Below, piece after piece: positions 2,788-55,679 of a stretch of 64,000 bases of DNA; the first letter of the stretch is position 1; every line of letters begins with the position of its first letter. The notes beneath the pieces are model-generated. The model was not told the DNA's origin, made no database searches, and saw only the letters and a program-made list of their open reading frames with translations. The position numbers and the translations under genes are program-made. This DNA comes from an uncultured bacterium (GTDB taxonomy: Bacteria; Auribacterota; Erginobacteria; Erginobacterales; CAZKCI01), in assembly GCA_964551475.1 (NCBI GenBank), contig CAZKCI010000064.1:19643-83642 (forward strand). Direction: 5' to 3'.

Positions 2788-2799
2788 GGAGGCCCGATA

Positions 2800-3212
2800 A
2801 CGGAAGGTAAATAGGCTAGGGTTAGGTGAATGGTTTGGTCATTGGGCAAGGGTTAGGTGCGGCCGGGTTCCACCGTTTACCTCACCTATTGACCAGACCA
2901 ATAACCTTGCCCTAACCCATTGACCGATTGGTTGACGGGTTAGGGTAAGGAAGTGGGTCTGGTAAATGGGTTAGGGTCAAGTGCGGCCTGGAGAACCGCC
3001 GGCCGGGCTGCACCATTGACCTTACCCATCGACCAGACCAATAACCTTGCCCTAACCCATTGACCGATTGGTTGACGGGTTAGGGTAAGGAAGTGGGTCT
3101 GGTAAATGGGTTAGGGTCAAGTGCGGCCTGGAGAACCGCCAGCCAGGCTGCACCATCGACCTTACCCATCGACCAGACCAATATCCTAACCCTAACCCAT
3201 CAACCCCATCCG
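2800..3212 (+). repeat. Three tandem copies of a ~125-bp MITE-like element with terminal inverted repeats (GGGTTAGGGTAAGGAAGTGGGTCTGGTAAATGGGTTAGGG … CCTTACCCATCGACCAGACCAATAACCTTGCCCTAACCC), joined by GATTGGTTGAC linkers
   Basis: Two near-identical ~150-bp direct repeats (approx 2893-3050 and 3043-3190), each carrying internal inverted arms, plus a more diverged copy at 2805-2935. The same element recurs at 6 other intergenic loci in the window. Confidence 0.8.
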
Positions 3213-3223
3213 CACCGCAACAA

Positions 3224-4213
3224 ATGAAGGAACAATCTCAAGATATTCTTCTGCAAGTCCGCGACCTCCGGAAGAGCTTCCCCCTTCGCCGGGGGCTCTT
3301 CTCCCGCCCGGCGGGGTCCGTCCGGGCGGTGGACGGGGTGAGCTTCGAGATCCCCCGCGGGACCACGCTCGGCCTGGTCGGCGAGACCGGCTGCGGGAAG
3401 ACCACGCTCGGCCGCCTCATCCTCCGTCTCCTCCCCGCCGACGGGGGAGAGGTTTTCTTCCGGGGCTTGAACGTGCTCGCCCTTCCCCCCGCCCGGCTGC
3501 GGGAGCTGCGCCAGGAGATGCAGATCGTTTTCCAGGATCCTTTCGGATCGCTGAACCCCCGGATGAGAGTCGGCGCGATCGTGGGGGAGGGGCTCCGAAT
3601 CTTTCGGCGGGGGACCGGACGGGAGATCGAGACGGAGACGGCCCGCCTCCTGGAGCGGGTGGGCCTCAACGCCTCCGCGGCGAAACTCTATCCCCACGAG
3701 TTTTCGGGCGGCCAGCGCCAGCGGATCGGGATCGCCCGGGCGATCGCGCTCCGGCCCGCGTTCATCGTCTGCGACGAGCCGGTCTCTTCGCTGGACGTCT
3801 CCATCCAGGCCCAGATCCTGAACCTTCTCGCCGACTTGCAGGAGGAGATGGGGCTCGCCTATCTCTTCATCGCCCATGATCTCCGCGTGGTCGAGCACAT
3901 CTCCCATCGGGTGGCGGTGATGTACCGGGGGCGGCTCATGGAGACGGCGAAACGGGAGGATCTTTACGCCGATCCCCGCCACCCCTACACCCGTCTCCTT
4001 CTGGATTCCATCCCCGATCTCGATCCCGCCGCCCCCCGCCGCGATCCGCCCGCCGTTGCGCCCGAAGAGGCGGCTGGCGACGGCTGCCCGTTCTTCCCGC
4101 GCTGCGGGGAGAGGAGCGAGGAATGCGGTACGGTAGTTCCGGAGCTTCAGGAGATTTTTCCCGGGCATCAGGTGGCGTGTATAAGGCAGGGAAGGCTGAA
4201 GACCGAAGGCTGA
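3224..4213 (+). CDS. ABC transporter ATP-binding protein, OppF/DppF family
   Basis: Walker A GETGCGKT, signature FSGGQRQR, Walker B FIVCDEPVSSLD and a C-terminal Cys-containing extension (CPFFPRC). Confidence 0.85.
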   Translation: MKEQSQDILLQVRDLRKSFPLRRGLFSRPAGSVRAVDGVSFEIPRGTTLGLVGETGCGKTTLGRLILRLLPADGGEVFFRGLNVLALPPARLRELRQEMQIVFQDPFGSLNPRMRVGAIVGEGLRIFRRGTGREIETETARLLERVGLNASAAKLYPHEFSGGQRQRIGIARAIALRPAFIVCDEPVSSLDVSIQAQILNLLADLQEEMGLAYLFIAHDLRVVEHISHRVAVMYRGRLMETAKREDLYADPRHPYTRLLLDSIPDLDPAAPRRDPPAVAPEEAAGDGCPFFPRCGERSEECGTVVPELQEIFPGHQVACIRQGRLKTEG

Positions 4214-4370
4214 AGGCTGAAGGCCGAAGACTGAAGGCTGAAGGCTGAAGGAAAAACCGCCTGAACCCTGAACCCTGAACCCTGAACCCTGAACCCTGAA
4301 CCCTGAACCCTGAACCCCGTAGCCAGCCACTTGACAATTGATAAATGACCAATGACGAATGACCAATGAT
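4189..4370. repeat. Three consecutive short tandem arrays: (GCTGAAGG)x~7 overlapping the oppF 3' end, (CCTGAAC)x8, and (AATGACC)x3
   Basis: Read directly: …gaaggctgaagaccgaaggctgaaggctgaaggccgaagactgaaggctgaaggctgaagg…cctgaaccctgaaccctgaaccctgaaccctgaaccctgaaccctgaacccc…aatgaccaatgacgaatgaccaatga. A TTGACA hexamer sits at ~4331. Confidence 0.85.
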
Positions 4371-6208: not shown

Positions 6209-6290
6209 GCCGGGATGGTGGAACTGGCAGACACATACGTTTGAGGGGCGTATGGGGTAACCCGTGCGGGTTCGACTCCCGCTCCCGGCA
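6209..6290 (+). tRNA. tRNA-Leu (anticodon GAG), type II with long variable arm
   Basis: Acceptor stem GCCGGGA/TCCCGGC with discriminator A. Anticodon stem tacgt/gcgta has the loop TTGAGGG, giving anticodon GAG. The variable arm tggggtaacccgtgc is long. The T-arm is GCGGG-TTCGACT-CCCGC. No encoded CCA. Confidence 0.8.
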
Positions 6291-10266: not shown

Positions 10267-10398
10267 TGGGTAAGGGTGAGGAAGTGGGTCTGGTCAATGG
10301 GTTGGGGTTAAGTGCAGCCCGGCGAATCGCAAGACAGGCCAGACCATTAACCTTACCCATCTTCCAGACCAATAACCTCACCCTTACCTATTGACCAT
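10267..10398 (+). repeat. MITE-like palindromic element, single copy, beginning 1 bp after the upstream stop codon
   Basis: tGGGTAAGGGTGAGGAAGTGGGTCTGGTCAATGGGTTGGGGTTAAGTGCAGCCC…AGACCATTAACCTTACCCATCTTCCAGACCAATAACCTCACCCTTACC. The arms are reverse-complementary. Confidence 0.8.
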
Positions 10399-10407
10399 CG
10401 GTTAACA

Positions 10408-10776: not shown

Positions 10777-10780
10777 AACG

Positions 10781-11020
10781 ATTGGTCAATGGGTTAGGGT
10801 TAGGAAGTGGGTCTGGTGGATGGGTTAGGGCAAGGTGTCGCCAAGCCAGGTTGCACCATTAACTTTACCCATATACCAGACCAATATCCTTACCCTTACC
10901 CATTAACCGATTGGGTGACGGGTTAGGGTTAGGTCAACGGTTTGGTCCTTGGGCTGGGGTTAGGTCGGTTGCACCATTGACCTTGCCCATTTACCGGACC
11001 AATAACCTTGCCCTGATCCA
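10781..11020 (+). repeat. Two tandem MITE-like elements between the receiver and histidine kinase genes
   Basis: Copy 1 ~10785-10908 (GGGTTAGGGTTAGGAAGTGGGTCTGGTGGATGGGTTAGGG…TACCAGACCAATATCCTTACCCTTACCC). The linker is gattgggtgac. Copy 2 ~10920-11020. Confidence 0.8.
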
Positions 11021-12979: not shown

Positions 12980-13803
12980 AAGCTTTCGCCTGGTTGTGCC
13001 CGCCGCGCCGGCTGATCCGTTGGCCCGGTTATTCCGCCCTGCTGGCGCTGGGCCTGGCCGGCTGCTCCTCTCTTCCCGAGGCCGAGCCGGCGATCGGATC
13101 CCGGGAAGAAGCGCGGGAGGCGATCGCCAGCGCCGACCCGGACCGCCGGGCGGACGGGGTGGAATATCTGGGCGACGCGGCGGACCCGGCGCTGATCCCG
13201 ACGATCTCGCCCCTGGTCCGGGATCCGGACAAGATGGTCCGTCTGAACGCCACTCTGGCCCTGCGCAACATCGCCGATCCCGCGGCCGCCGTGCCCCTGC
13301 GGGAAGCCCTCGTGGATGCCGACTCGGATGTCCGCTTCTCGGCCGCCAGCGCTCTATTCGAGATCGGGGACAGAACGGGCGAGGACGCCCTGATCGAGGG
13401 GCTCTCGAGCCCGCGACCCGACTTTCGTCTCCAGGCGCTGATGTTCCTGGGCAAGATGCGCTCGCGCAAGGCCGTCCCCGCTCTGGTCGGCCTGCTCAAG
13501 GACGAGGAGCCCCGGATCCGCTCCACCGCCGCCTACATCCTCGGCCTGCTTGAGGAGCCATCGGCCCGGGGCCCCCTGATCGCGGCCTTGAGCGATGAGT
13601 CCGTCTGGGTGCGCCGTGACGCCTGGGGGGCGCTTCAGGCCGTCTCCGGGGAGGCGCTGATTTTTCATCCCGACGCCGAACCGGCCGTCCGGGAGCAAGA
13701 GACGGCGGCCATCAGGGAATGGGCGGCCTCCCGGACGGCGGGGACGCCGGTGCTTCCGGCACCATCGCCGCTTTCCAGCCCCGGGGTGATAGGACAAGAT
13801 TAG
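12976..13803 (+). CDS. HEAT-repeat (PBS-lyase-like) lipoprotein
   Basis: ATG 12976 overlaps the kinase stop (ATGA). Lipoprotein signal …LLALGLAGCSS. Repeated …DPD/VR…A..AL… HEAT-like units (DKMVRLNATLALRNI, DSDVRFSAASALFEI, EPRIRSTAAYILGLL, SVWVRRDAWGAL). Confidence 0.7.
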   Translation: MKAFAWLCPPRRLIRWPGYSALLALGLAGCSSLPEAEPAIGSREEAREAIASADPDRRADGVEYLGDAADPALIPTISPLVRDPDKMVRLNATLALRNIADPAAAVPLREALVDADSDVRFSAASALFEIGDRTGEDALIEGLSSPRPDFRLQALMFLGKMRSRKAVPALVGLLKDEEPRIRSTAAYILGLLEEPSARGPLIAALSDESVWVRRDAWGALQAVSGEALIFHPDAEPAVREQETAAIREWAASRTAGTPVLPAPSPLSSPGVIGQD

Positions 13804-13805
13804 AA

Positions 13806-14040
13806 AGAAAATGGGTTAGGGTTAGGAAGTGGGTCTGGTAAATGGGTTAGGGTTAAGTGCGGCCTGACAAAACCGCCAGCCGGGCTACACCATTGACCGA
13901 TTGGTTAATGGGTTGTTGATGGGTTGGGGTTAGGAAGTGGGTCTGGTAAATGGGTTAGGGCAAGGTGTCGCCAAGCCAGGCTGCACCATTAACTTTACCC
14001 ATTTACCAGACCAATATCCTTACCCTTACCCATTGACTAG
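13806..14040 (+). repeat. MITE-like elements (one truncated copy plus one full copy) directly after the HEAT-lipoprotein stop
   Basis: aTGGGTTAGGGTTAGGAAGTGGGTCTGGTAAATGGGTTAGGGTTAAGTGCGGCC…; second copy …GGGTTGGGGTTAGGAAGTGGGTCTGGTAAATGGGTTAGGGCAAGG…TTTACCCATTTACCAGACCAATATCCTTACCCTTACCC. Confidence 0.8.
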
Positions 14041-16905: not shown

Positions 16906-17030
16906 CATGGACGAGATGGACGGAAGAATGGACGAGATAGACAAAAAACCGGATTAAGACTGTTTCTCCTCCCGTCCCCTGATCCCTACCCTCTATCCTC
17001 TACCATCTACCATCTACCCCCTACCCCCTA
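16906..17030. repeat. Tandem 9-mers (ATGGACGAG)x3 followed by 7-mers (CTACCMT)x~6
   Basis: …catggacgagatggacggaagaatggacgagata… and …ccctaccctctatcctctaccatctaccatctaccccctaccccctaa… read directly. Confidence 0.8.
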
Positions 17031-17565: not shown

Positions 17566-17692
17566 GAAAGAAAGGCTGAGGGCTGAAGGAAAAGCGGCGC
17601 GCATCTTGTGTCCGGCCTCTCTTATCGTGTATTGTATGGCCGGCAAGCCGGGCTGCGTTTGTCCAGGCTTTGTCCATATCGTCCATATCGAC
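17566..17692. repeat. Short tandem repeats in the secA upstream region: GCTGAGG/GCTGAAGG and (GTCCATATC)x2-GACCATGTC
   Basis: …aaaggctgagggctgaaggaaaag… and …tttgtccatatcgtccatatcgaccatgtcaa… These are the same CTGAAGG and CGTCCAT repeat families seen elsewhere in the window. Confidence 0.7.
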
Positions 17693-17693
17693 C

Positions 17694-20600
17694 ATGTCAA
17701 TACTGACCAAAATTTTTGGCACCAAGTTCGACCGCGACCGCAAGAAACTCCAGCCCCTGGTCGACGAGATCAACCGCCGGGAGGCGGAGTACCGCAACCT
17801 CTCCGAAGAGGCCTTCCGGTCCCTCTCCGCCGGCTTCCGGGAACGGCTCGCCCGGAAGATCGCCGAGCCGACCGCCGCCCTCGCCTCCGTCCGCTCCCGC
17901 CTGGCCTCGGAGCTTACGACCGGCGAGGAGGATGAGCTCAAGGCCGAGGAGAAGGACCTGATCAAGACCATCCGGGCGGCGGAGAAAGCGGAGCTGGAGG
18001 TCCTCCTCCCCGATGCCTTCGCCGCGGTGAAGAACGCCTGCCGGAGGCTCCTCAAGCAGACCTGGGATGTCTGCGGCCAGTCCCTGACCTGGGAGATGGT
18101 CCCCTTCGACGTCCAGATCATCGGGGGGATCGCCCTCCACCAGGGGCGGATCGCCGAGATGGCCACCGGCGAAGGCAAGACGCTGGTCGCCACCTTCCCC
18201 CTCTACCTGAACGCGCTCGCCGGCCACGGCGTCCACCTGGTCACCGTGAACGACTACCTGGCCCGGCGCGACCGGGAGTGGATGGGGCGGATCTTTGAAA
18301 GCCTGGGACTCAGCGTGGGCTGCATCCAGGTGGGGATGGAGCCCGCCGAGCGGTGCGCCGCCTACGCCTGCGACATCACCTACGGGACGAACAACGAGTT
18401 CGGTTTCGACTACCTCCGCGACAACATGGCGGTCCGCCCCGAAGACCAGGTGCAGCGGATCTACCTTCACCACAAGGCGGACACCGACGAGATCAAGCGC
18501 GGCCACTACTACGCGATCATCGACGAGGCGGATTCGATCCTGATCGACGAGGCGCGGACCCCGCTGATCATCTCCGGACCGGTGGCCCGGGACGAGTCCA
18601 CCCATCTCGTCTACAAGCGGGTGATGCCGCTGATGAAGGACCTCTCCCGGCGGCAGGCGCTCCTCTGCGCGCGGCTTTTGGCGGAGGGGAAGGCGGCCTG
18701 GGAGAAGGACGACGAGGAGACGGCCGCCCGCCGCTTCTACCAGGTGAAGAAAGGCCAGCCCAAGAACAAGCAGCTGATGAGCCTGATCGAGGACCCCGCC
18801 GCCCGGAGGCTGATCGAGCGGGCCGAGGTCGAGCTCGACGCCGTCTCTTCCCAGGCCCCCCGGGCCGAGGAGGGGCGGGCGATGCGCGAGGAGCTCTTCT
18901 ACACGCTCAACGAGCGCGCCCACGAGATCAACATCACCGACAAGGGCCATCTCGCCCTCTCTCCCCAGAACCCCGACGAGTACGTGGTCGAGAGCCAGCA
19001 GCAGGACTGGCTGAGCGAGCATCAGAAGGTGGAGTCCGACCCCTTGCTGAGCCGGGAGGAGAAGGTCCTCCGCCACAACGAGATCGTCCGGGAGGAGCAG
19101 GCCTTCAACCAGAAGATCGACAAGATCCACGCCGCCTTCACCTCCCTGCGCGCGCTCGACCTCTTCGAGAAGGACGTCGAGTACGTGATCCAGGACAACA
19201 AGGTGGTGATCGTGGACGAGTTCACCGGCCGCTTGATGCCCGGCCGCCGCTACAGCGACGGGCTCCACCAGGCCCTGGAGGCGAAGGAGGGGGTCTGGAT
19301 CGAGCATGAGACGCAGACGCTGGCCACGGTCACCATCCAGAACTACTTCCGGATGTACGAGAAGCTCGCCGGGATGACCGGGACGGCCGAGACCGAGGCG
19401 GTGGAGTTCGACAAGATCTACCACCTCGACGTGATGGTCATCCCCACCAACGAGCCGGTCCGGCGGACGAACTACCACGACCGGATCTACAAGACCAAGA
19501 ACGAGAAGTACCAGGCGGTGATCGCCGAGATCGCCGCCGGCTTCGAGAAGCAGCGGCCGGTGCTGGTGGGGACGGTCTCGGTCGACACCTCCGAGGTCCT
19601 GAGCCGCATGCTGAAGCGGCGCAAGATCCCCCACCAGGTCCTGAACGCCCGCTACCATCAGCAGGAGGCGGAGATCGTGACCCGGGCCGGCCAGGCCGGC
19701 GCGGTCACCATCGCCACCAACATGGCCGGGCGGGGGACCGACATCAAGCTCGGGGCGGGCGTGGTCCGCGCGGAGTGCCTGGAGACGCGGGGGCGGAACC
19801 GCCGCGCCGCCGGGGAGGCCTTCGCGGGCGAGCCCTGGTGCTGCGTCACCTGCCGCGTCTACGACAAATGCCGCCGGGGGTCGAAGGCGCTCTGCGGGAA
19901 GCCGGCCCAGATGTTCGCCTGCCGAAGCGAGGTCCCCTGCGGACTGCACATCGTCGGGACCGAACGGCACGAGGCGCGGCGGATCGACCGCCAGCTCCGC
20001 GGCCGCTGCGCCCGCCAGGGGGACCCCGGCGCCTCGCGCTTCTACCTCTCGCTCGAGGACGACCTGATGCGCCTTTTCGGCTCCGACCGGATCGCCGGGA
20101 TCATGGGGAAGATGGGGATCGAGGAGGGGGAGGAGATGACCCATCCGCTCCTCACCCGGGCGATCGAGACCGCCCAGAAACGGGTGGAGGGGCACAACTT
20201 CTCCATCCGCGAGCACATCCTCAAATACGACGACGTGATGAACAAGCAGCGGGAGGAGATCTACGCCTTCCGCACCAGCATCATCGACAGCCTGAACCCG
20301 CGCCGGGGGATCCTGGGGGTCATCGAGGAGGCGGTCCGGGAAAAGGTGGAGGAGTTCTGCCCGGAGAAGACGCCTCCGGAGGAGTGGAAGTGGTCGCGCC
20401 TCTCCCTCTGGCTCCAGTCGACCTTTCTCATCTCGCTCCCCGAGAAGTCCCCCCCGGAAGGGATCGCCGCCGCGGGGCTCACCGAGAAGATCATGGGACA
20501 GGTCTCCCGCTTCTACGAGCTCAAGGAGGTCTACGAGGGGAAGGAGAACATGCGGCGGCTCGAGAAGCTGGTGGTCTTGTCCGTGATCGACCGCCTCTGG

Positions 20601-21051: not shown

Positions 21052-21215
21052 AAACATTGGAGTACTGGAGTATTGGAGTAGTGGAGTGATGATAATCATG
21101 GAGTATTGGAGTAGTGGAGTGATGGAGTAATGGGGCAGACTGCCGTGCGGCTTTTTTCCAATACTCCAATACTCCATCACTCCATTACTCCATTGCTCCA
21201 TCACTCCAGTACTCA
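21052..21215 (+). repeat. Large inverted repeat built from 8-mer tandem units (GGAGTANT)x~9 … (ANTACTCC)x~7, with an embedded intrinsic-terminator-like centre (GGCAGACTGCC gtgcggc TTTTTT)
   Basis: Left arm ~21058-21132, centre 21133-21157, right arm 21158-21214. The arms are reverse complements at unit level. Confidence 0.85.
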
Positions 21216-22851: not shown

Positions 22852-24720
22852 TTGTCCAGCTACCGTCTCCGGCTCACGAATAAGATGATGAATGTTCGCG
22901 ATCATCTCTCGAGCCGCGCCTTTCGGGGGACGGCGCTCCTGCTTCTCGCCCTCCTCGCCGCGCTCGCCTATTCCTATCCCATCTTCCGCGACTTCGGCAA
23001 CTGGGGGATCCAGGACTGGGACCAGCACCTCTTCTACCACGCCGTCCCCCGCCACACGATTCTCCACTACCATGAGTTCCCGCTCTGGAACCCCTGGTAC
23101 TGCGGGGGGGCGCCTCTTCTCGCCAACCCGCAGTCCCGTTTCCTCTCCCCGACCTACCTCTGCGTCCTCCTCCTGGGCGCGGTGCGGGGGATCAAGGTCG
23201 AGATCCTCCTCCACCTGGTCGTCGGCCTGGTCGGGGCTTACCGCCTCGCCCGCTCCTTCCGGATGAGCCGCCCCGCCTCCGCCCTCACCGCTTCCCTCTT
23301 CGTTCTCAACAGCTCCTTCGCCCTCAACCTGACCGTGGGGATGACCTGGTTCCTCTCCGCCGCCTACATCCCCTGGGCTTTCCATTTTTATCTCAAAGCG
23401 ATGCGGGACCTGCGCTGGTCGGCCGCGAGCGGTGCCTGTCTGGCTATGGTTTTCCTGGGCGGGGGAATCTATCCCGTCGTGATCGCCGTTCTTTTTCTCT
23501 TCGTCTATGCACTCTTCGCCGTTCTCCTGGAGAAAAGGCGCTTCTCCCGCGCCGCGGCGGCCATTTTTCTCTCCATCGCTTTCGCCTTGTCGATCAGCGC
23601 CATCAAAGCCATCCCCGCCTGGATGTATCTGAAAGGACACCCCCGCCTGATCGACGACTACTCCGGCTACAGCCTCTCCTCGCTCGTCTTCTCCCTCTTC
23701 AGCCGCGATCAGCAACTGGGGGCGATCGAGAGCGCCCTCTCCACGTCCCGGACGGGATTTTTCGGCGGCGTCTCCTGGTTTATGGACGAGAACGGAATGT
23801 ACGTCGGGATCGTCGCCGCCCTCCTCTGCCTTCTCGGGATGATCTCCCGCTTCCGCCGCCGCCCGGCTCTCGCCCTCTGCCTGGTCCTCTCCCTCTGGCT
23901 CGCCTTCGGCTCCCGGGCGCCGTTGAGCCTTTGGAATCTCATCCATGAACTTCCGGTTTTCGCCTCGATGCGTGTGGCCCAGCGCTACCGGATCGTTTTT
24001 CTCCTCGCCTTCTCGCTCTTCGCCGGTTTCGGTCTCGACTCCCTGCTCGACCGTCTCCGCCGCCTCCGCCCGCGATTCCCCTCCGATCCCCTCGCCGCCG
24101 CCGCGGTCCTGGTGATCTCGGCCGACCTGATCCTGGTCTCCTCGCGGGTTTTCCGGGAAGCCTTCCCGATCCCTCCGCTCCCGGTTGGCCCTCCGGGCGC
24201 TTTTCGCCAGGTGGAATCATTCTCGTCTTACGGAAGAATCGGCTGGGTGGCGTACGCTTCGAATCCCCGGCACATATCCTGGGGCGGACTCTACCCGGCT
24301 TTTTTGAGCAACCTGGGAGTGATCAAGGCCTACGAGTCGGCCGAGGTGCCCAGGATGGCGATCCCGTCGGAGTGGCCGAGCTACCGGGGGGAGATATTCC
24401 TGGAGGGCACGGAAGGGAGCGCCACGCTCCAGCGTTGGACGCCCAACGCGCTGACGATCGAAACCGAGGCCGATCGTCCGGGCTATCTCATCGTCAACCA
24501 GAACTACGATCCCGGCTGGAAAATCGCCGGCGGCGGGACGGTGGAGAAGAGGAGGGGACTGATTGCGGTAAAAATACCTTTCCGCCGGGCCTCCGTGGCA
24601 TTATATTATCAGCCCCCCGGTTTTCGCCTCGGACTGGCCGTCTCGGCCGCCGGCTGCCTGCTGGCGGCCGCTGTTCTGCGCCGGACGATGCGTCTCCGGG
24701 GGAGGCAGGAAGAAAAATGA
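22852..24720 (+). CDS. Large polytopic membrane protein (~620 aa), candidate GT-C-fold glycosyltransferase (YfhO/ArnT-like)
   Basis: More than 10 predicted TM helices. A conserved-looking periplasmic loop (HEFPLWNPWYCGGAPLLANPQS). Family assignment is tentative. Confidence 0.45.
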   Translation: MSSYRLRLTNKMMNVRDHLSSRAFRGTALLLLALLAALAYSYPIFRDFGNWGIQDWDQHLFYHAVPRHTILHYHEFPLWNPWYCGGAPLLANPQSRFLSPTYLCVLLLGAVRGIKVEILLHLVVGLVGAYRLARSFRMSRPASALTASLFVLNSSFALNLTVGMTWFLSAAYIPWAFHFYLKAMRDLRWSAASGACLAMVFLGGGIYPVVIAVLFLFVYALFAVLLEKRRFSRAAAAIFLSIAFALSISAIKAIPAWMYLKGHPRLIDDYSGYSLSSLVFSLFSRDQQLGAIESALSTSRTGFFGGVSWFMDENGMYVGIVAALLCLLGMISRFRRRPALALCLVLSLWLAFGSRAPLSLWNLIHELPVFASMRVAQRYRIVFLLAFSLFAGFGLDSLLDRLRRLRPRFPSDPLAAAAVLVISADLILVSSRVFREAFPIPPLPVGPPGAFRQVESFSSYGRIGWVAYASNPRHISWGGLYPAFLSNLGVIKAYESAEVPRMAIPSEWPSYRGEIFLEGTEGSATLQRWTPNALTIETEADRPGYLIVNQNYDPGWKIAGGGTVEKRRGLIAVKIPFRRASVALYYQPPGFRLGLAVSAAGCLLAAAVLRRTMRLRGRQEEK

Positions 24721-25851
24721 ACGTGGAGATCACCGAAAGACACAAGACCCTCGCCTCCCGCTTCGCGGAGATGCGGGGGCATCTTTGACCTGGACGGCAA
24801 GCGGACCCGCCTGAAGGAACTGGAAACGGAGATGTCCCGCCCCGGTTTCTGGGACGAGGGGGAAAAGACCCAGAAGGCAATCGCCGAGCTCAAGGGGATC
24901 AAGGAGGTGCTCGATCCCTGGTCCGAACTGGAGAAAGATCTCGGGGAGCTTCCCGAACTTCTCGCTCTGGCCGCCGAAGACGCCAGCCTGGAGGGGGAGA
25001 TCGTCTCCGAGGTCGACCGGATCGGGGAGCGCCTGGACGCGCTCGAGCTTTCCGCGATGCTCTCCCGCCCGGAGGACGCCCAGGACGCGGTCTTCAGCCT
25101 CCAGGCCGGAGCGGGGGGGACCGAGTCCTGCGACTGGACCGAGATGCTCTGGCGGATGTACAGCCGCTGGTGCGAGAGGCGCGGCTACGACGTCGAGGTG
25201 GTGAACATCGCGCCGGGGGAAGAGGCGGGGATCCGGAATCTCACCGCCCTGATCAAGGGGCGTTTCGCCTACGGTTATCTCCAGGCCGAGCGGGGAGTCC
25301 ACCGGCTGGTGCGGATCTCCCCCTTCGATTCCAACCATCGCCGCCACACCTCCTTCGCGTCGGTCGACGTGGCCCCCGACGTGGAGGAGGAGATCGTGAT
25401 CGAGATCGAGGAGAAGGATCTGCGGATCGACACCTTCCGCGCCGGGGGCCATGGGGGCCAGCACGTCAACATGACCGACTCGGCCGTCCGGATCACCCAC
25501 CTGCCGACCGGGATCGTGGTCCAGTGCCAGAACGAGCGCAGCCAGCACAAGAATCGGGCGACGGCGATGAAGGTCCTCAAAGCCCGCCTCTACCAGCGGG
25601 AGCAGGACGAGCTCCGGAGGAAGGCGGTCAAGCATCACGAGGCGCAGAAGGAGATCGGCTTCGGTTCCCAGATCCGCTCCTACGTCTTTCATCCCTACAC
25701 CATGGCCAAGGATCACCGGACCGGCGTCACTACCGGCGACGTGAACCGGGTCATGGACGGGGACATCGACCGCTACATCAACGCGTTTTTAAAGCAGCAG
25801 ACGGGGAGGGGTTCTCCCGGGCCGGCTGCCGACGACGACATGGAGGTGTAA
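24717..25851 (+). CDS. prfB: Peptide chain release factor 2, expressed via programmed +1 ribosomal frameshift (join 24717..24785, 24787..25851)
   Basis: Frame-0 ORF MNVEITERHKTLASRFAEMRGHL ends at the in-frame UGA in gggggCAT CTT TGA C. The +1 frame continues DLDGKRTRLKELETEMSRPGFWDE… and carries the SPF (…RISPFDSNHRRHTSF…) and GGQ (…RAGGHGGQHVNMT…) motifs. Confidence 0.9.
24775..24789 (+). promoter_or_regulatory. RF2 autoregulatory +1 frameshift site: internal SD-like GGGGG, 3 nt, then CUU UGA C
   Basis: Matches the canonical prfB frameshift cassette (SD-like element, slippery CUU, weak UGA-C stop context). Confidence 0.85.
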
Positions 25852-25857
25852 AACGGG

Positions 25858-25915
25858 TAAACCAAGAACCGCAAAAAGTGAACCGTGAACCGTGGAACCG
25901 TGAACCGTTGAACCA
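25858..25915 (+). repeat. Tandem 9-mers (GTGAACCGT-like)x~5 immediately after the prfB stop
   Basis: …aaccaagaaccgcaaaaagtgaaccgtgaaccgtggaaccgtgaaccgttgaaccaggttgg… This is the TGAACC repeat family. Confidence 0.75.
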
Positions 25916-25941
25916 GGTTGGTTAAACCAGAGGAGGAGACG

Positions 25942-26214
25942 ATGACTATCTATGTCGGCAATCTGCCCCGCGATATCAGCGAGGAGGAAGTCCGCCAGGC
26001 TTTCGCCGCATTCGGCGAAGTGACCGTGGTCCGCATGATCAAGGACAAAGTTACCGGCGAGGCGCGCGGCTTCGGCTTTGTGGAGATGCCCAACGCCGAG
26101 GAAGGCGCTTCCGCCGTCCGGGCGATGAACGGCAAGGAGCTCAAGGGCCGCACGCTGAACGTCAACGAGGCCCACGCCAAGCCCGAGGGCGGAAGAGGCC
26201 CGAGAAGAGAGTAG
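25942..26214 (+). CDS. RNA-binding protein with a single RRM domain
   Basis: RNP-2 IYVGNL and RNP-1 RGFGFVEM, with a Gly/Arg-rich tail. The ATG at 25942 lies inside track ORF 25918..26214. Confidence 0.85.
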   Translation: MTIYVGNLPRDISEEEVRQAFAAFGEVTVVRMIKDKVTGEARGFGFVEMPNAEEGASAVRAMNGKELKGRTLNVNEAHAKPEGGRGPRRE

Positions 26215-26220
26215 GCAGGT

Positions 26221-26288
26221 AAGGGTTAGGAAGTGGGTTTGGTCTATGGGTTACCAGACCCACTTCCTAACCCTGACCCATCGACCAG
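26221..26288 (+). repeat. Minimal MITE-like hairpin (20-bp arms GGTTAGGAAGTGGGTTTGGT / ACCAGACCCACTTCCTAACC) filling the RRM-lysS intergenic gap
   Basis: Near-perfect inverted repeat with a 9-nt loop. It has the same arm sequence as the larger elements and ends 6 bp before the lysS ATG. Confidence 0.8.
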
Positions 26289-29040: not shown

Positions 29041-29045
29041 AAGAG

Positions 29046-29275
29046 TCAATGGGTTAGGGTTAGGAAGTGGGTCTGGTAAATAGGTTGGGGTTAGGTGTGT
29101 CATGGCAAAACGACTGACGGGCTACACCATTGACCGATTGGTTGACGGGTTAGGGTTAGGAAGTGGGTCTGGTAAATGGGTTGGGGTTAGGTGTGTCATG
29201 GCAAAACGACTGACGGGCTACACCATCTACCTTACCCATCGACCAAACCCACTTCCTTACCCTCACCCATTAACC
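29046..29275 (+). repeat. MITE-like elements (two copies, first lacking a right arm) between lolC/E and lolD
   Basis: …caatGGGTTAGGGTTAGGAAGTGGGTCTGGTAAATAGGTTGGGGTTAGGTGTG…; the second copy ends …ATCTACCTTACCCATCGACCAAACCCACTTCCTTACCCTCACCC. The internal spurious ORFs (MAKRLTGYTI…) are repeat-encoded. Confidence 0.8.
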
Positions 29276-29285
29276 CTGTTTGACT

Positions 29286-30066: not shown

Positions 30067-30972
30067 ATGCATATCTACATCAACGGCAAGTATTTCGACA
30101 AGGACGAGGCGAAGGTCTCGGTCTATGACCACGGGCTTCTCTACGGGGACGGCGTCTTCGAGGGAATCCGGGTCTACAACAACCGCGTCTTCCGCCTGGG
30201 GGAGCACATCCAGCGCCTCTACGATTCGGCCAAAGGGATCTGCCTGACCATCCCGCTCAGCCCGGAGGAGATGTCCCAGGCGGTCATCGAAACCGTTCGT
30301 CGCAACGGCCTGCCCGATGCCTACATCCGCCTGGTCGTCACCCGCGGCGCCGGCTGCCTGGGGCTCAACCCCTTCACCTGCTCCCATCCCCAGGTCATCA
30401 TCATCGTCGACAAGATCGCCCTCTATCCCCAGGAGCTGTACGACAAGGGGTTGAATGTCGTCACCGTGGCCACGCACCGCAACTACCCGGAGTCGCTCAA
30501 CCCCCGGATCAAGTCGCTCAACTACCTGAACAACATCCTGGCCAAGATCGAGGCGATCAACGCCGGCGTGGAAGAGGCGATCATGCTCAACTCCTACGGC
30601 CTGGTCTCGGAGTGCACCGGCGACAACATCTTCGCCTACCGCAAGGGCGTTCTCCTCACCCCCTCGATCAGCATGGGCGTGCTGGAGGGGATCACCCGCG
30701 ACGCCGTCATCCAGATCGCCCGGGAAAAGAAGATCGTCGTCAAGCCCATGGTCATGACCCGCTACGATTTCTACATCGCCGACGAGGTCTTCGTGACCGG
30801 GAGCGCGGCCGAGATCGTCCCGGTGGTCAAGGTCGACGGGCGGGTGATCGGGGAGGGCGTCCCCGGCCCGGTCACCCGGTCCCTGATGGAGGCCTACCAT
30901 CACCTGACCCGGAGCGAAGGGGAGCCGGTGACCCGTGGGGGGAAACCGGGTAAAAAGAAACTGATTGGTTGA
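30067..30972 (+). CDS. ilvE: Branched-chain amino acid aminotransferase (PLP fold type IV)
   Basis: ATG 30067 after a GAGGT RBS (MHIYINGKYFDKDEAKVSVYDHGLLYGDGVFEGIRVY…). Conserved E…K motifs are present. The final codons and TGA stop lie within the downstream repeat. Confidence 0.85.
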   Translation: MHIYINGKYFDKDEAKVSVYDHGLLYGDGVFEGIRVYNNRVFRLGEHIQRLYDSAKGICLTIPLSPEEMSQAVIETVRRNGLPDAYIRLVVTRGAGCLGLNPFTCSHPQVIIIVDKIALYPQELYDKGLNVVTVATHRNYPESLNPRIKSLNYLNNILAKIEAINAGVEEAIMLNSYGLVSECTGDNIFAYRKGVLLTPSISMGVLEGITRDAVIQIAREKKIVVKPMVMTRYDFYIADEVFVTGSAAEIVPVVKVDGRVIGEGVPGPVTRSLMEAYHHLTRSEGEPVTRGGKPGKKKLIG

Positions 30973-31245
30973 CGGGTTAGGGTTAGGAAGTGGGTCTGGT
31001 AAATGGGTTAGGGTTAAGTGCGGCATGGCGAAACCGCCAGCCGTGCCACACCATCTACCTTACCCATCGACCAAACCCACTTCCTTACCCTCACCCATTG
31101 ACCGATTGGTTGACGGGTTAGGGTTAGGAAGTGGGTCTGGTAAATGGGTTAGGGTTAAGTTCGGCATGGCAAAACGGCTGACGGGCTACACCATTAACCT
31201 TACCCATTTACCAGACCATTATCCTGACCTTTACCTATAGACCAT
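30962..31245 (+). repeat. Two tandem MITE-like elements between ilvE and mcsA; the element/linker supplies the ilvE stop codon
   Basis: ctgattggtTGAcGGGTTAGGGTTAGGAAGTGGGTCTGGTAAATGGGTTAGGGTTAAGTGCGGC…ATCTACCTTACCCATCGACCAAACCCACTTCCTTACCCTCACCC cattgaccgattggttgac GGGTTAGGG… (second copy). Confidence 0.85.
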
Positions 31246-31249
31246 CTTT

Positions 31250-37398: not shown

Positions 37399-37547
37399 GG
37401 TTCAACGGATCAAGGGTTCAGCGGTTCAGAGGTTCACGGTTCAACGGTTAGATAACACAACCGCTGAACCGCTGAACCGTGAACCGTTGAACCGTGAACC
37501 GCTGAACCGCTGAACCGTGAACCGCTGAACCGTTGAACCCTGAACCC
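37399..37547 (+). repeat. ~150-nt inverted repeat made of 8-9-mer microsatellite units: (GGTTCANNG)x6 - loop agataacacaa - (CNNTGAACC)x~11, followed by a T-rich tract
   Basis: It begins 1 bp after the TPR-gene stop and ends ~20 nt before the proS ATG. The arms were read directly. Confidence 0.85.
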
Positions 37548-37567
37548 TGTTTCCTTTTGGAGCACCC

Positions 37568-39335: not shown

Positions 39336-39360
39336 CCCTGAACCCTGAACCCTGAACCCC
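39336..39360 (+). repeat. (CCCTGAA)x3 heptamer array
   Basis: gccctgaaccctgaaccctgaacccc; the same unit as the 4261-4318 array. Confidence 0.7.
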
Positions 39361-42796: not shown

Positions 42797-43010
42797 TTCA
42801 CTTCCGGGGCGCCGAGAAGAAGACGGCCGCGGAGGCGGCAGGGCCCGGGGCAGGGACGGCGGGGATAACCGGCCGGGATGAAGGGCGCCCTCCGAATCCA
42901 CACGAAATGGAGGAGAACCTGATTTTCCAGGCCTGTCCATAGCGTCCATCCAGTCCCTCCCGTCCATGGCGTCCCGACCCTCGCGGTTCAGTCGGCCGGT
43001 GATTCCGGCC

Positions 43011-48161: not shown

Positions 48162-48860
48162 CTGGACGGTTTTCTCCTCGTCGACAAACCCCCCGGCATC
48201 ACTTCCTACGGTGTGGTCGACCGGCTGAAAAAGCGCTTCCGGCCCGGCCGCATCGGCCACGGGGGAAGCCTGGACCCGCTGGCCACGGGGCTTCTGGTGG
48301 TGATGCTGGGGAAGGCGACCTCGTCCGCTTCGTCACTGCTCGGGGGGGACAAGGAGTATCTGGCCGATGTGCGCCTGGGCCTAGCCACCGACACACAGGA
48401 CATCAGCGGGCGCACTCTCTCCGAAAAGGATCCCTCGTCCGTGACCCGGGAAGGACTGGCGGAGGCGCTCCGGGCTTTCCGCGGCGAGATCGAGCAGATC
48501 CCGCCGATGTTCTCGGCCCTGAAAAGCCACGGCGAGCGCCTCTACGATCTGGCCCGGCGGGGGATAACCGTTCCCCGTCCCCCCCGCCGGGTGACGGTGC
48601 GTCAGATCGATCTTGTCGATTTTGTTCCTCCGGTCGCCCGGATCCGGGTGCTCTGTTCCAAGGGAACCTACATCCGGACGCTGGCCAGCGATCTGGGCGA
48701 GCGCTTGGGAGTGGGCGCCTGCCTGTCGGCGCTGAGACGGACAGCCTCCTTCCCGTACCTGGTCGGTGACGCGCTGGAGCTGGAACGTCTATTGGCCATG
48801 TCCAAAGAGGAGTTCGAAGCAAGACTTATACAGCCGGAGGGATCACAGGTTGCACGATAA
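48162..48860 (+). CDS. truB: tRNA pseudouridine(55) synthase TruB (probable non-canonical CTG start; the first in-frame GTG at 48213 would delete the conserved N-terminus)
   Basis: In-frame upstream translation LDGFLLVDKPPGITSYGVVDRLKKRF… matches the TruB N-terminal motif. The catalytic region GHGGSLDPLATGLLVVMLGKAT is present. No ATG/GTG/TTG lies in frame upstream. Confidence 0.7.
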   Translation: MDGFLLVDKPPGITSYGVVDRLKKRFRPGRIGHGGSLDPLATGLLVVMLGKATSSASSLLGGDKEYLADVRLGLATDTQDISGRTLSEKDPSSVTREGLAEALRAFRGEIEQIPPMFSALKSHGERLYDLARRGITVPRPPRRVTVRQIDLVDFVPPVARIRVLCSKGTYIRTLASDLGERLGVGACLSALRRTASFPYLVGDALELERLLAMSKEEFEARLIQPEGSQVAR

Positions 48861-48861
48861 T

Positions 48862-48997
48862 CGGGTTCAGCGGTTCACGGTTCAGCGGTTCAGCGGTTCA
48901 ACGGTTGGAAAAATAACCGTGAACCGCTGAACCGTGAACCGCTGAACCTCTGAACCTCTGAACCGTTGAACCGTGAACCGTTGAACCTTTGAACCCT
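48862..48997 (+). repeat. ~135-nt inverted repeat of 8-9-mer units: (GGTTCANCG)x5 - loop aaaaataa - (CNNTGAACC)x~9
   Basis: It starts 2 bp after the truB stop and ends ~18 nt before the ribF ATG. It has the same architecture as 37399-37547. Confidence 0.85.
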
Positions 48998-49014
48998 GGC
49001 TGCATAGACATGCA

Positions 49015-49962
49015 ATGAAGGTTTATAACTCCATTACTCCTCGTTCTTCGCGGTCTCCGCTGGTTATCGGAATCGGAACCTTCGACGGCGTCCATCGCGG
49101 GCACCGGGCGGTCCTCTCCGCCGTCCGCCGACTGGCCGGACAGTCCGGAGTTTCCGGCGTGATCGCCTTCCGCGTCCCCCCGCGGCATGTGGTCGGGGCG
49201 GGCGGAGAGGAGTGCCTGACCACGCCGGCCCAGCGCCGGGAACTGTTCCAGAAAACGGGCGTGGACGTCTGCTGGCTCCTCGACTTCGACCGCCGTTTTT
49301 CGCGTCTTTCCGCGGACGATTTCGTGCGCCGCGAGCTCGCCCAGAAGCTCAGGATCTCCGGCGTCTGCGTGGGGGAGGGATTCCGTTTCGGGCGGGGGAG
49401 GGGGGGGACGGTCGCTCTCCTCCGCCGTCTGGGCGCGGAACTCGGGTTCCGTGTCCGGGAGGTAAGGGCGGTGCGCGCGGGCGGCCGCCGTGTCTCCAGC
49501 ACGCGCATCCGCCGTCTTCTCGCCCGGGGGGACGTCCGTTCCGCCGCCCGCTGCCTGGGGAGAGACTACGTTCTCACCGGGAAGGTCGTGGGCGGGCGCG
49601 GCCAGGGGCGTTCTCTCGGCTATCCCACGGCCAACTTCATCCCCGAGCAGATGCTTCCCCGTCCCGGCGTCTACGCCGCCCGGATCGAGTCCGGTGGCCT
49701 CCGCCGGAGCGGGATGTTCTATCTTGGCCGCCGTCCGACACTGCCCGGGCGCCGGCCGGGAGAGGTCGTAGCCGAAGCCCATCTCTTCGATTTCGCCGGA
49801 AACCTCTACGGGAGGCGGATAAAAGTCTTCTTGAAAAGGCGCCTGCGAAGGGATATAAAGTTCAAAACCATAACGGCCCTCCTCGGGCAGATCCGGCGCG
49901 ATGAGACGCGCGCCCGCTTCTCCGCAAAGAGACTGAGCCGCCGCAAAGGAGATAACGCATGA
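49015..49962 (+). CDS. ribF: Bifunctional riboflavin kinase / FMN adenylyltransferase
   Basis: IGTFDGVHRGH adenylyltransferase motif and a C-terminal riboflavin kinase domain (…GRGQGRSLGYPTANF…). Confidence 0.85.
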   Translation: MKVYNSITPRSSRSPLVIGIGTFDGVHRGHRAVLSAVRRLAGQSGVSGVIAFRVPPRHVVGAGGEECLTTPAQRRELFQKTGVDVCWLLDFDRRFSRLSADDFVRRELAQKLRISGVCVGEGFRFGRGRGGTVALLRRLGAELGFRVREVRAVRAGGRRVSSTRIRRLLARGDVRSAARCLGRDYVLTGKVVGGRGQGRSLGYPTANFIPEQMLPRPGVYAARIESGGLRRSGMFYLGRRPTLPGRRPGEVVAEAHLFDFAGNLYGRRIKVFLKRRLRRDIKFKTITALLGQIRRDETRARFSAKRLSRRKGDNA

Positions 49963-50228: not shown

Positions 50229-50281
50229 ATCGAGCATAGACGGCCGGGGGAGAGCCCCGGAGAAAAGAGAGAGAGGAAAGT

Positions 50282-55439: not shown

Positions 55440-55447
55440 AGATTTCC

Positions 55448-55677
55448 ACGAATTGACACGAATTTTCACGAATTAGGCTTGGCCCGGCTCGGCATTTTAA
55501 CCCGCGAATAACGCGCCTGCCCGCCGCAGCGCATAGCGCGGAGGCGGGAATAGCGCGCGAAGGGGTTCGATTTGAACGGTTTCAACGTCTTCAACGATTT
55601 CAACGGCCGTTCAGTCGGTCACGTGTAACGTGTAACGATTTCAACGACTGCAACGATTTTAACGTCTTCAACGCTTC
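55448..55677 (+). repeat. Composite repeat region upstream of rimO: (CACGAATT)x3, CGCGAATA/GCGCATAG/GGGAATAGCGCGCG motifs, then a ~10-unit 9-mer array (NNTTCAACG)
   Basis: …gatttccacgaattgacacgaattttcacgaatt… and …ggtttcaacgtcttcaacgatttcaacggccgttcagtcggtcacgtgtaacgtgtaacgatttcaacgactgcaacgattttaacgtcttcaacgcttc. Confidence 0.8.
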
Positions 55678-55679
55678 TC

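Follow-up and report, generated by a model that had tools for sequence, protein, structure and literature searches.

A long hairpin of inverted heptamer/octamer arrays between truB and ribF in an uncultured Auribacterota bacterium as a candidate member of a dispersed intergenic family

The 154-nt gap between truB and ribF carries two mirror-image runs of a 7-8-nt unit, which together make a single very long hairpin. We give about an even chance to the reading that this hairpin is a copy of a dispersed, fast-turning-over intergenic family with a generic, REP-like action in the operon transcript; judging from sequence comparison, it does not appear to be a control element specific to ribF or truB. 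The window, by which we mean the whole 64,000-nt stretch analysed, is 64.6% G+C, has nearly all of its genes on the + strand and is about 15% intergenic (~9.4 kb). The genes around the hairpin were confirmed as those for TruB, RibF, S15 and PNPase, with NusA, IF-2, RbfA and an NrnA-like protein encoded upstream. Pfam TruB_N/TruB_C_2 were found on the truB gene in L001, and the RibF N-terminus (MKVYNSIT) agrees with that of relatives. The locus is composed as follows:

48213-48860, + strand, truB coding sequence as called (NCBIfam TIGR00431, 200 bits), its 3' part being certain, with the stop codon TAA at 48858-48860
48864-48906, + strand, 5' arm of the hairpin: five GGTTCA units (GGTTCAGC, GGTTCAC, GGTTCAGC, GGTTCAGC, GGTTCAAC) and a partial GGTT
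48907-48914, + strand, A-rich loop GGAAAAAT
48915-48995, + strand, 3' arm of the hairpin, roughly double the 5' arm in length: a partial AACC, then ten TGAACC units
49001-49014, + strand, small palindrome TGCATagacATGCA, which abuts the ribF ATG
49015-49962, + strand, ribF, bifunctional riboflavin kinase / FAD synthetase (NCBIfam TIGR00083, 216 bits)

GGTTCA units start at 48864, 48872, 48879, 48887 and 48895 (spacing 8, 7, 8 and 8 nt), and TGAACC units at 48920, 48928, 48935, 48943, 48951, 48959, 48967, 48974, 48982 and 48990. The first base of the hairpin lies 3 nt past the truB stop. An initial annotation of this DNA had described five forward GGTTCA units, an A-rich loop and an inverted block at 48862-48997, and the sequence is as it stated. 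Its count of nine inverted units has to be corrected to ten, plus the leading partial AACC, and its spacing of about 18 nt to the ribF ATG is, measured from the last unit (48995), 19 nt. The palindrome that it placed across the ribF ribosome-binding site is present and forms a 5-bp hairpin in both RNA and DNA folds, but no Shine-Dalgarno-like motif is seen within it by inspection, so that 'across' is true of position only.

With TRF, the two arms come out at 5.5 and 10.5 copies of a period of 8 nt, at 88-91% matches. The arrays have the properties by which long simple-sequence repeats are defined, i.e. a 5-11-nt unit repeated head-to-tail beyond chance and enriched in non-coding DNA. The two-unit patterns TGAACCNNTGAACC and TGAACCNTGAACC occur 19 and 18 times in the window versus 0.01 and 0.00 expected, respectively (100 dinucleotide shuffles). 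The truB-ribF hairpin is no assembly artefact, since its sequence is identical in two JGI metagenome assemblies from two samples, one of them a 242-kb contig, and its 3' end is contained in two independent Logan assemblies, whose contigs break within the 3' arm.

As RNA, the truB-ribF spacer folds at -80.9 kcal/mol versus -42.9 +/- 4.0 kcal/mol in dinucleotide shuffles (z = -9.6); for the DNA fold, z = -9.4. Folded singly, the arms are nearly unstructured (-8.2 kcal/mol for the 5' arm and -6.8 kcal/mol for the 3' arm; -5 to -8 for arms overall). An inverted-repeat search found two overlapping blocks of the 3' arm as partners for the 5' arm:

48920-48948, + strand, proximal pairing block of 29 nt, 100% complementary to 48864-48892
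48945-48987, + strand, distal alternative pairing block of 43 nt, 88% complementary to 48864-48906

The proximal register comes out at -73.9 kcal/mol, ~7 kcal/mol above the optimum, and a purely distal register at -61.9 kcal/mol; in the minimum-energy fold the base of the stem is formed with the distal block. This fold makes up 0.009 (0.9%) of the ensemble, hence many registers coexist. Unit variants of 7 and 8 nt follow one another in mirrored order in the two arms, which suggests that the arms stay complementary through inverted copying (template switching) and/or selection for pairing. Sense and antisense folds of seven hairpins gave a mixed picture with no consistent difference, and a G-U bias is absent; thus, they give no evidence that selection acts on RNA rather than on DNA. 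We found no match to Rfam, including the FMN riboswitch, for the hairpin loci at gathering thresholds. At E <= 1 only sub-threshold microRNA-precursor models appear, and they do so on both strands, as would be expected of a generic long hairpin.

The same window carries a second hairpin of the same unit:

37399-37546, + strand, sister hairpin between a TPR gene and proS, with orthologous hairpins in L298 and L299

Five GGTTCA units and one degenerate GGATCA (37399-37449) are followed here by a 9-nt loop AGATAACAC and 11 TGAACC units (37459-37546). The sister hairpin begins immediately past the stop of the TPR gene, ends 21 nt short of the proS ATG and folds as RNA at -88.7 kcal/mol (z = -10.6); it has termini in common with the truB-ribF hairpin (GGTTCA... 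...GAACCCTG). About 15 hairpins built of other units in the layout of a G-rich arm, an A-rich loop and a C-rich arm are found in the same 64 kb, among them the following:

21058-21214, + strand, hairpin of another unit, (TGGAGTAN)9.4, loop, (TCCATTAC)7.2, between secA and lnt

A small GC stem with a T-run lies in its loop region, at 21137-21156. The same layout is seen in a complex-sequence hairpin (GGGTTAGGGTTAGGAAGTGGGTCTGG... / ...CCAGACCCACTTCC...), below called family A, which occupies at least 8 spacers of the window. Altogether, arrays and hairpins make up ~2.26 kb of the ~9.4 kb of intergenic DNA (~24%), and 18 of the 23 arrays with a 6-9-nt period are wholly or mostly intergenic. The hairpins span gene gaps all the way from the stop codon to the ribosome-binding region. 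Some arrays of the window have a single arm:

4191-4251, + strand, (GAAGGCT)8.7 array, which precedes the CCTGAAC array and is not complementary to it
4260-4317, + strand, one-armed array of 8.3 perfect CCTGAAC units, 41 nt before the next gene
25878-25914, + strand, one-armed array of 5 TGAACC units, 3 nt before the gene of an RRM_1 RNA-binding protein (25918-26214)
39336-39359, + strand, one-armed array of 3.4 TGAACCC units, 9 nt before a btpA-like gene

All three TGAACC arrays without a GGTTCA partner lie on the sense strand, 3-41 nt ahead of a start codon. Together with the neighbouring non-complementary arrays at 4191-4317, they show that members of the class need not be paired.

By RibF and ProS, the closest relatives are uncultured bacteria of the PVC group, which their source records call Candidatus Aureabacteria or Auribacterota. 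We compared their truB-ribF spacers with that of the window. In the nearest genome (L009, GCA_964584165.1; RibF 72% identical) the truB TAA is directly followed by the ribF ATG (GGGGATAATGATG). A family-A hairpin occupies the gap in L174 and L176 (77-78%), (CAGAATN)4.6, a loop and (ATTCTGN)8.6 fill it in L003 (50%), and different short repeats are found there in L175 and L005. As relatives have at truB-ribF either no spacer or entirely different repeats, the housekeeping context would not point to a dedicated role. The proS-upstream hairpin is present in three species. In L298, which belongs to the same MAG as L009 and has a ProS 90% identical, it stands in the orthologous spacer with 5 GGTTCA and ~9 TGAACC units; in L299 (82%) it is split by another inverted-array insert with a ~30-nt flanking duplication. 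The MAG that is without the ribF copy thus retains the proS-upstream one, and L009 also has a degenerate TGAACCC array (TRF).

Over the 14 kb of synteny compared, TGGAGTA hairpins stand at macB-abc and proS-btpA in L298 and at secA-lnt in the window, where family A takes the macB-abc spacer, and GGTGTNA and GTTACGTAA arrays are found in L298 only. The secA-lnt unit family (TGGAGTAN/TCCATTAC) is also seen at other spacers in both L298 and L299. The two GGTTCA hairpins of the window are 78% similar to each other, and the proS copy is 70-73% similar to its orthologue; the truB-ribF loop GGAAAAAT resembles the loop of the L299 proS locus, GGTTGGAAAAACATGAAGATAACCG. These comparisons show that the truB-ribF spacer is not conserved and that the hairpin families turn over fast between close relatives. 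Since the spacer is not conserved, the proS-upstream hairpin is older and the window copies are more alike than orthologues, we infer that the ribF copy is a younger, lineage-specific gain of a dispersed element.

The initial annotation had recognized the design of the truB-ribF locus at 37399 as well, and 37399-37546 does consist of a GGTTCA arm, a loop and a TGAACC arm. It had put both loci in the truB-ribF-rpsO-pnp operon, which applies to truB-ribF alone, the 37399 locus lying 11 kb upstream, from the TPR gene to proS. Its main idea, a dispersed and structured repeat class rather than chance tracts, is borne out by the common termini, by the other unit families and by the occurrences in other genomes and phages described below. 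It had proposed to examine this idea with a search for tandem TGAACC units, a fold prediction and a comparison of orthologous spacers. In the 64-kb window all 5 tandem TGAACC arrays are intergenic and 2 of the 5 are inverted pairs, and both folds lie far below their shuffles, as given above. In the comparison of spacers, the proS hairpin recurs in L298 and L299, and at truB-ribF the relatives examined have no GGTTCA hairpin.

We looked for the class outside the lineage. A three-unit TGAACC scan returned at least 120 matches in a metagenome collection and at least 120 in a viral collection, and GGTTCA-type units are carried by L131, L083, L116, L127, L142, L113 and L166. In the 2.27 Mb of DNA fetched, a generic search returned 59 pairs of inverted arrays, 52 of them evaluable. 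A stop-hairpin-start arrangement was seen for 37 of these 52 (+ strand, 23; - strand, 14; crude ORF calling), with the array a median of 9 nt past the stop and a median of 19 nt ahead of the start, while 2 pairs were convergent-only and 5 divergent-only. An ATGCTGA/TCAGCAT hairpin stands between infB and rbfA in L130. In the structural module of phage L208, a (GTTCAAN)4/(NTTGAAC)4 hairpin is found at every gene gap, and its loops have a motif in common, which related contigs carry in either orientation. The hairpin and the region downstream of it are identical in the related phages L238 and L291, and a search for compensatory change between the two was therefore uninformative. A TTTT directly follows the L238 hairpin.

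Two apparent regularities were discarded. The G-rich arm comes first in all ~15 hairpins of the window, which might be taken for a bias relative to transcription or replication, but a hairpin reads alike on both strands, hence 'G-first' is a property of the type of element and not of its orientation. Counted by unit, GGTTCA-first and TGAACC-first elements stand at ~10 to 2. A general 1:2 ratio of the arms, true for the window copies, L298, L003, L113 and L142, fails in the 24 scored pairs (3' arm longer in 7, 5' arm longer in 7, equal in 10).

The closest described counterpart of the truB-ribF hairpin is in Geobacter metallireducens, whose paired 'global regulator binding sites' fall into classes 1-3, with 24 + 21 + 8 pairs per genome (Aklujkar et al. 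2009, PMC2700814, Figs S3-S5, Table S4). They consist of 4-5 tandem octa- or heptanucleotides on opposite strands and as a rule lie between the 3' side of one gene and the 5' side of its neighbour; binding of IHF/HU to them was put forward as a guess (PMC2700814). As in the truB-ribF hairpin, their units read outward from the centre, i.e. (unit')n-loop-(unit)n, and opposite-strand arrays of this kind (at truB-ribF, GGTTCA x5, an 8-nt loop and TGAACC x10) stand in both the truB-ribF and TPR-proS gaps. However, Geobacter units are GTTGCTYN (class 1) and MTYCTGA (class 3), whereas the window unit is GGTTCA/TGAACC, and the arms of the window hairpin are longer and unequal (5 versus 10 units). The phyla also differ, the window being from a PVC-group candidate phylum and Geobacter from Desulfobacterota. 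The class 3 unit ATTCTGA (MTYCTGA) is that of the L003 truB-ribF hairpin. Because layout and location match those of the Geobacter sites and the unit consensus does not, we would assign the truB-ribF hairpin to the Geobacter architectural kind and not to the Geobacter sequence classes. It thus adds a new unit and a new phylum to a kind that has been recorded, and never characterized, in Geobacter.

REP elements are stabilizers of mRNA and are tied to RAYT transposases. Each is an imperfect palindrome of 20-40 nt, complex in sequence and tagged with GTAG or CGTC (PMC3733652), and REPINs are ~100-nt hairpins of two inverted repeats (PMC3116915). When placed <=15 nt from a stop codon, REPs stall ribosomes and reduce translation (PMC12306157). 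[quoted passage not shown] The window arms, in contrast, are 43 and 81 nt of tandem units with no GTAG or CGTC tag, and no RAYT (Y1 transposase) gene is among the genes of the 64-kb window.

For heptamer simple-sequence repeats we know of no accepted function. Among long simple-sequence repeats, heptanucleotides are the most frequent, and slippage of the polymerase has been put forward to account for them (Mrazek 2007, cited in PMC4679880). In Xanthomonas and Nostoc, GGGNATC repeats have the G-rich sense strand after stops and the antisense (C-rich) strand just before starts (PMC4692102), and TAACTGA arrays of Beggiatoaceae lie a few nt upstream of start codons (PMC4679880). Heptamer repeats of these kinds, including the STRR of cyanobacteria, resemble the window arrays in being head-to-tail, strongly intergenic and mostly between same-strand neighbours, and TAACTGA arrays are, like TGAACCC, without self-structure. 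However, they are described as single direct arrays, with one inverted case found in 170 TAACTGA sets, whereas the window has a mirrored pair that makes a ~45-bp duplex. The truB-ribF element is related both to these repeats and to REP-like elements.

Long intercistronic duplexes cut by RNase III, with a protective upstream 3' stem, are also known from the intercistronic sites of phage T7 and from the leader hairpin of E. coli rpsO-pnp. They share with the window element the position between cistrons and, for rpsO-pnp, the operon context. They are, however, unique and conserved, with internal loops tuned for a single cleavage, whereas the window element is repeat-built and dispersed. In literature searches, inverted heptamer arrays did not turn up for phages or by a different name.

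Put together, we suggest the following course of events. The arrays would belong to the slippage-prone class of long simple-sequence repeats, gaining and losing units by slippage, which would explain their variable unit number; inverted copying (template switching) and/or selection for pairing would hold the arms complementary. The truB-ribF copy would most likely derive from an older element, e.g. one upstream of proS. Since there is no room for a promoter, no U-tract terminator is present and truB runs directly into ribF in the closest relative, the hairpin would be co-transcribed in the nusA-infB-rbfA-nrnA-truB-ribF-rpsO-pnp message. In the RNA it would form a register-degenerate ~45-bp duplex based 3 nt past the truB stop and 19-27 nt ahead of the ribF start. 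With the base of the stem so close to the stop, a ribosome terminating on truB would be impeded and would stall; the stem may also offer a duplex of a length suitable for RNase III and a barrier to 3' exonucleases. Upstream and downstream cistrons would thereby be uncoupled in stability and translation, with the ribF ribosome-binding region left free. By analogy with REPs and the RNase III-cut hairpins, a generic role in ribosome stalling, RNase III processing or as an exonuclease barrier is probable. Persistence at the proS locus in three species could also be explained by concerted evolution through slippage, without any function.

A tentative and somewhat unlikely alternative is that a non-autonomous mobile element (MITE-, REPIN- or IS200/IS605-derived) sits between truB and ribF, the hairpin serving as substrate for a transposase located elsewhere in the genome and any effect on expression being incidental. 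As to origin, it overlaps with the reading of a dispersed REP-like family; the two differ on whether any function exists. Mobility would account for presence, absence and replacement of families at orthologous spacers, for the same unit families at different spacers in genomes whose ProS are 90% identical, for window copies that have common termini and are more alike than orthologues, and for family-A hairpins as dispersed complex-sequence copies in the same layout. The phage family with conserved loops in both orientations and the L299 insert with its ~30-nt flanking duplication also fit. However, neither window locus is flanked by the target-site duplication of a MITE (junctions TAATCG/G...CCCTG/GCTGC at truB-ribF and AATAA/G...CCCTG/TTTCC at proS), the GTAG/CGTC tag is absent at the hairpin ends, and neither a transposase or RAYT nor other copying machinery was found among the genes of the 64-kb window. 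Moreover, the copies differ by whole units, as expected from slippage. A broader claim, which we consider unlikely, is that inverted heptamer/octamer hairpins are no junk but have a function, serving very widely as punctuation between the cistrons of bacteria and phages: the stop codon and the ribosome-binding site would be held at the base of the duplex, which would set translational coupling, ribosome stalling and RNase III processing, possibly with a dedicated partner that binds RNA, e.g. the RRM protein whose gene adjoins one array, and the families would be spread among spacers, genomes and phages by undescribed copying.

It is doubtful, and more so than either of these, that a protein binds the arrays multivalently, with the hairpin tuning access to them. 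The primary element would then be (TGAACCN)n before starts, and the partner would bind RNA (ribosomal protein S1, a cold-shock protein or the RRM protein of 25918-26214) or DNA (IHF/HU). The constant sense-strand position of the one-armed arrays ahead of start codons agrees with this, as does the TGAACC array just upstream of the RRM gene itself. Among 76 metagenome arrays, an ORF start lies <=60 nt downstream in 24 when read in the TGAACC orientation versus 10 in the opposite one. TGAACC units are also unusually free of self-structure: (TGAACCC)8 folds at 0.0 and (TGAACCG)8 at -6.8 kcal/mol, versus a median of -21 for TGAACCG permutations. With a 3' arm about twice as long as the 5' arm at truB-ribF, half of it can stay single-stranded for ~7 kcal/mol, and analogous proposals have been made for TAACTGA repeats (PMC4679880) and the Geobacter sites (PMC2700814). 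However, one genome carries unrelated units (TGGAGTAN, GAAGGCT, ATTTCGG, CTACCNT, GTCCATNNN), which no single sequence-specific binder fits, and the downstream genes have no common function. The element is also missing from the orthologous truB-ribF spacer of the closest genome, and the longer 3' arm is not general (7 of 24 scored pairs).

It is very unlikely that the hairpin terminates or attenuates transcription between truB and ribF-rpsO-pnp. Its stability is great, the sister locus is followed by TGTTTCCTTTT, and related hairpins have the T-run in the loop with a small GC stem (21137-21156) or the TTTT after the hairpin (L238). However, no T-run lies past 48995, where the stem is followed by CCCTGGCTGCATAG; the 19 nt to the ribF ATG leave no room for a promoter that would restart essential genes; and the closest relative has no gap between truB and ribF. 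A site scan called nothing resembling a promoter or a terminator at 48860-49015 or 37399-37567. Least credible of all is a phase-variable contingency locus in which a change of unit number switches ribF or truB expression: short tandem units are prone to slippage and the perfect 8-copy array at 4260-4317 looks recently expanded, but the flanking genes are housekeeping genes, the two samples do not differ in the truB-ribF sequence (contigs from short reads end within the array), the arrays lie outside coding sequences and outside any recognizable promoter, and a role of this kind was considered improbable for comparable G-rich heptamer repeats (PMC4692102).

Two further identities were rejected. 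Mimicry of the tRNA T-arm as a TruB substrate, suggested by the likeness of GGTTCA to the T-loop, fails by eye, the counterparts of A58 and C61 not fitting, and the sister locus has no connection with truB. An internal promoter, with TTGAAC taken for a -35 hexamer, has no -10 element at a usable distance and the ATG only 19 nt away.

Overall, the single truB-ribF locus is ordinary in its own genome; what is under-described is the class as such, how abundant it is, how exactly it spans the gap from stop to start, how it turns over and that it occurs in phages. Such hairpins should not be taken for gene-specific regulators, and they explain assembly breaks at gene boundaries in genomes of this kind. 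If they shape mRNA processing or translational coupling, they would form a REP-like layer of expression control in poorly known phyla and in phages.

The window carries a dispersed hairpin of ~100–140 nt, which we call family A. Its arms (GGGTTAGGGTTAGGAAGTGGGTCTGGTAAATGGGT... and ...ACCCATCGACCAGACCCACTTCC...) are made up of degenerate modules of 5–7 nt that end in ACC, or in GGT on the opposite arm. Family A frequently occurs in two or three tandem copies that occupy entire spacers, and it is also found in the truB-ribF gap of two relatives' contigs, L174 and L176. A second family, with the 9-nt units ATGGACGNN / GTCCATNNN, occurs both in the window organism and in its relatives; these units are arranged as an inverted pair in L299, a relative with a hairpin upstream of proS.

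Repeat copies and selected genes (positions in the window unless a contig is named)
2788–3223, family A
6209–6290, tRNA-Leu(GAG) (ARAGORN)
10267–10407, family A
10777–11020, family A
13904–14036, family A
16907–16942, 9-nt unit family
17672–17695, 9-nt unit family
25918–26214, gene for an RRM_1 RNA-binding protein of 98 aa (Pfam, E = 8.5e-23)
26218–26278, family A
29041–29279, family A
30959–31249, family A
42935–42967, 9-nt unit family
L298 (closest genome, GCA_964584165.1) 13221–13761, 9-nt unit family
L299 3292–3376, 9-nt unit family

At 4191–4317, (GAAGGCT)8.7 is followed by AAAAACCG and then (CCTGAAC)8.3. As in the hairpins, a G-rich array precedes an A-rich linker and a C-rich array; the two arrays are non-complementary, and the GAAGGCT array contains the stop codon (4211–4213) of the ABC-ATPase gene that lies upstream. 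The loop of the hairpin at 21058–21214 (TGGAGTAN/TCCATTAC) contains a small GC stem and then TTTTTT (GCCGTGCGGCTTTTTT, 21137–21156), a terminator-like module nested within the repeat hairpin.

Comparable hairpins are found in phage contigs. Nearly all structural-gene gaps of L208 (positions 1–2792; IMG/VR UViG_3300009634_000151), and likewise of L228, L260, L216 and L238/L291, hold a (GTTCAAN)~4.4 / (NTTGAAC)~4.4 hairpin. The order within a gap is stop codon, ~3 nt, hairpin, ~20 nt with a Shine-Dalgarno motif, and start codon. Loops in L208 and the related contigs have a common motif, AAAACC..CTCTTTCCC, found in either orientation.

Some features of the window are of other kinds. prfB has a classic programmed +1 frameshift site (24717–24790): the short frame-0 ORF (MNVEITERHKTLASRFAEMRGHL) terminates at CTT TGA C (24783–24789), beyond which the body of RF2 is encoded in the +1 frame. 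A scan of the entire window with Rfam at gathering thresholds gave zero matches, the tRNA model included. The rpsO-pnp leader (50229–50281) contains a short GC hairpin (GGCCGGGGGAGAGCCCCGG), kept in L174 (2306–2356), and then a purine-rich run; the position of this hairpin is like that of the E. coli pnp leader hairpin. Between rpsO and pnp, Candidatus Erginobacter occultus (L007, 7320–7360) has a one-armed (CAGAATA)4.6 array, whose unit is identical to that of the truB-ribF hairpin of another relative (L003) and to that of the Geobacter class 3 sites (PMC2700814).

Arrays also lie close to start codons. Upstream of a MiaB/RimO-like radical-SAM gene, arrays of CACGAATTGA and of TTCAACGAC/AACGATTTC are present in the window (55440–55679); in the closest genome (L009, 12700–12830), the orthologous spacer has a TGAACCC array 5 nt upstream of the ATG. 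The RRM_1 gene has a TGAACC array 3 nt upstream and a mini family-A hairpin immediately downstream; speculatively, its product is a candidate partner of the arrays. In L299 (1040–1300), the proS-upstream GGTTCA/TGAACC element is split by an insert of ~170 nt with an inverted array of its own (ATCCTATTCA... / ...GGATAGGATGG). A direct duplication of ~30 nt (GAACCGTGAAyCTGATAACCTGAGCAGTCAyC) stands on both sides of this insert, and may be the footprint of the mode by which these elements insert.
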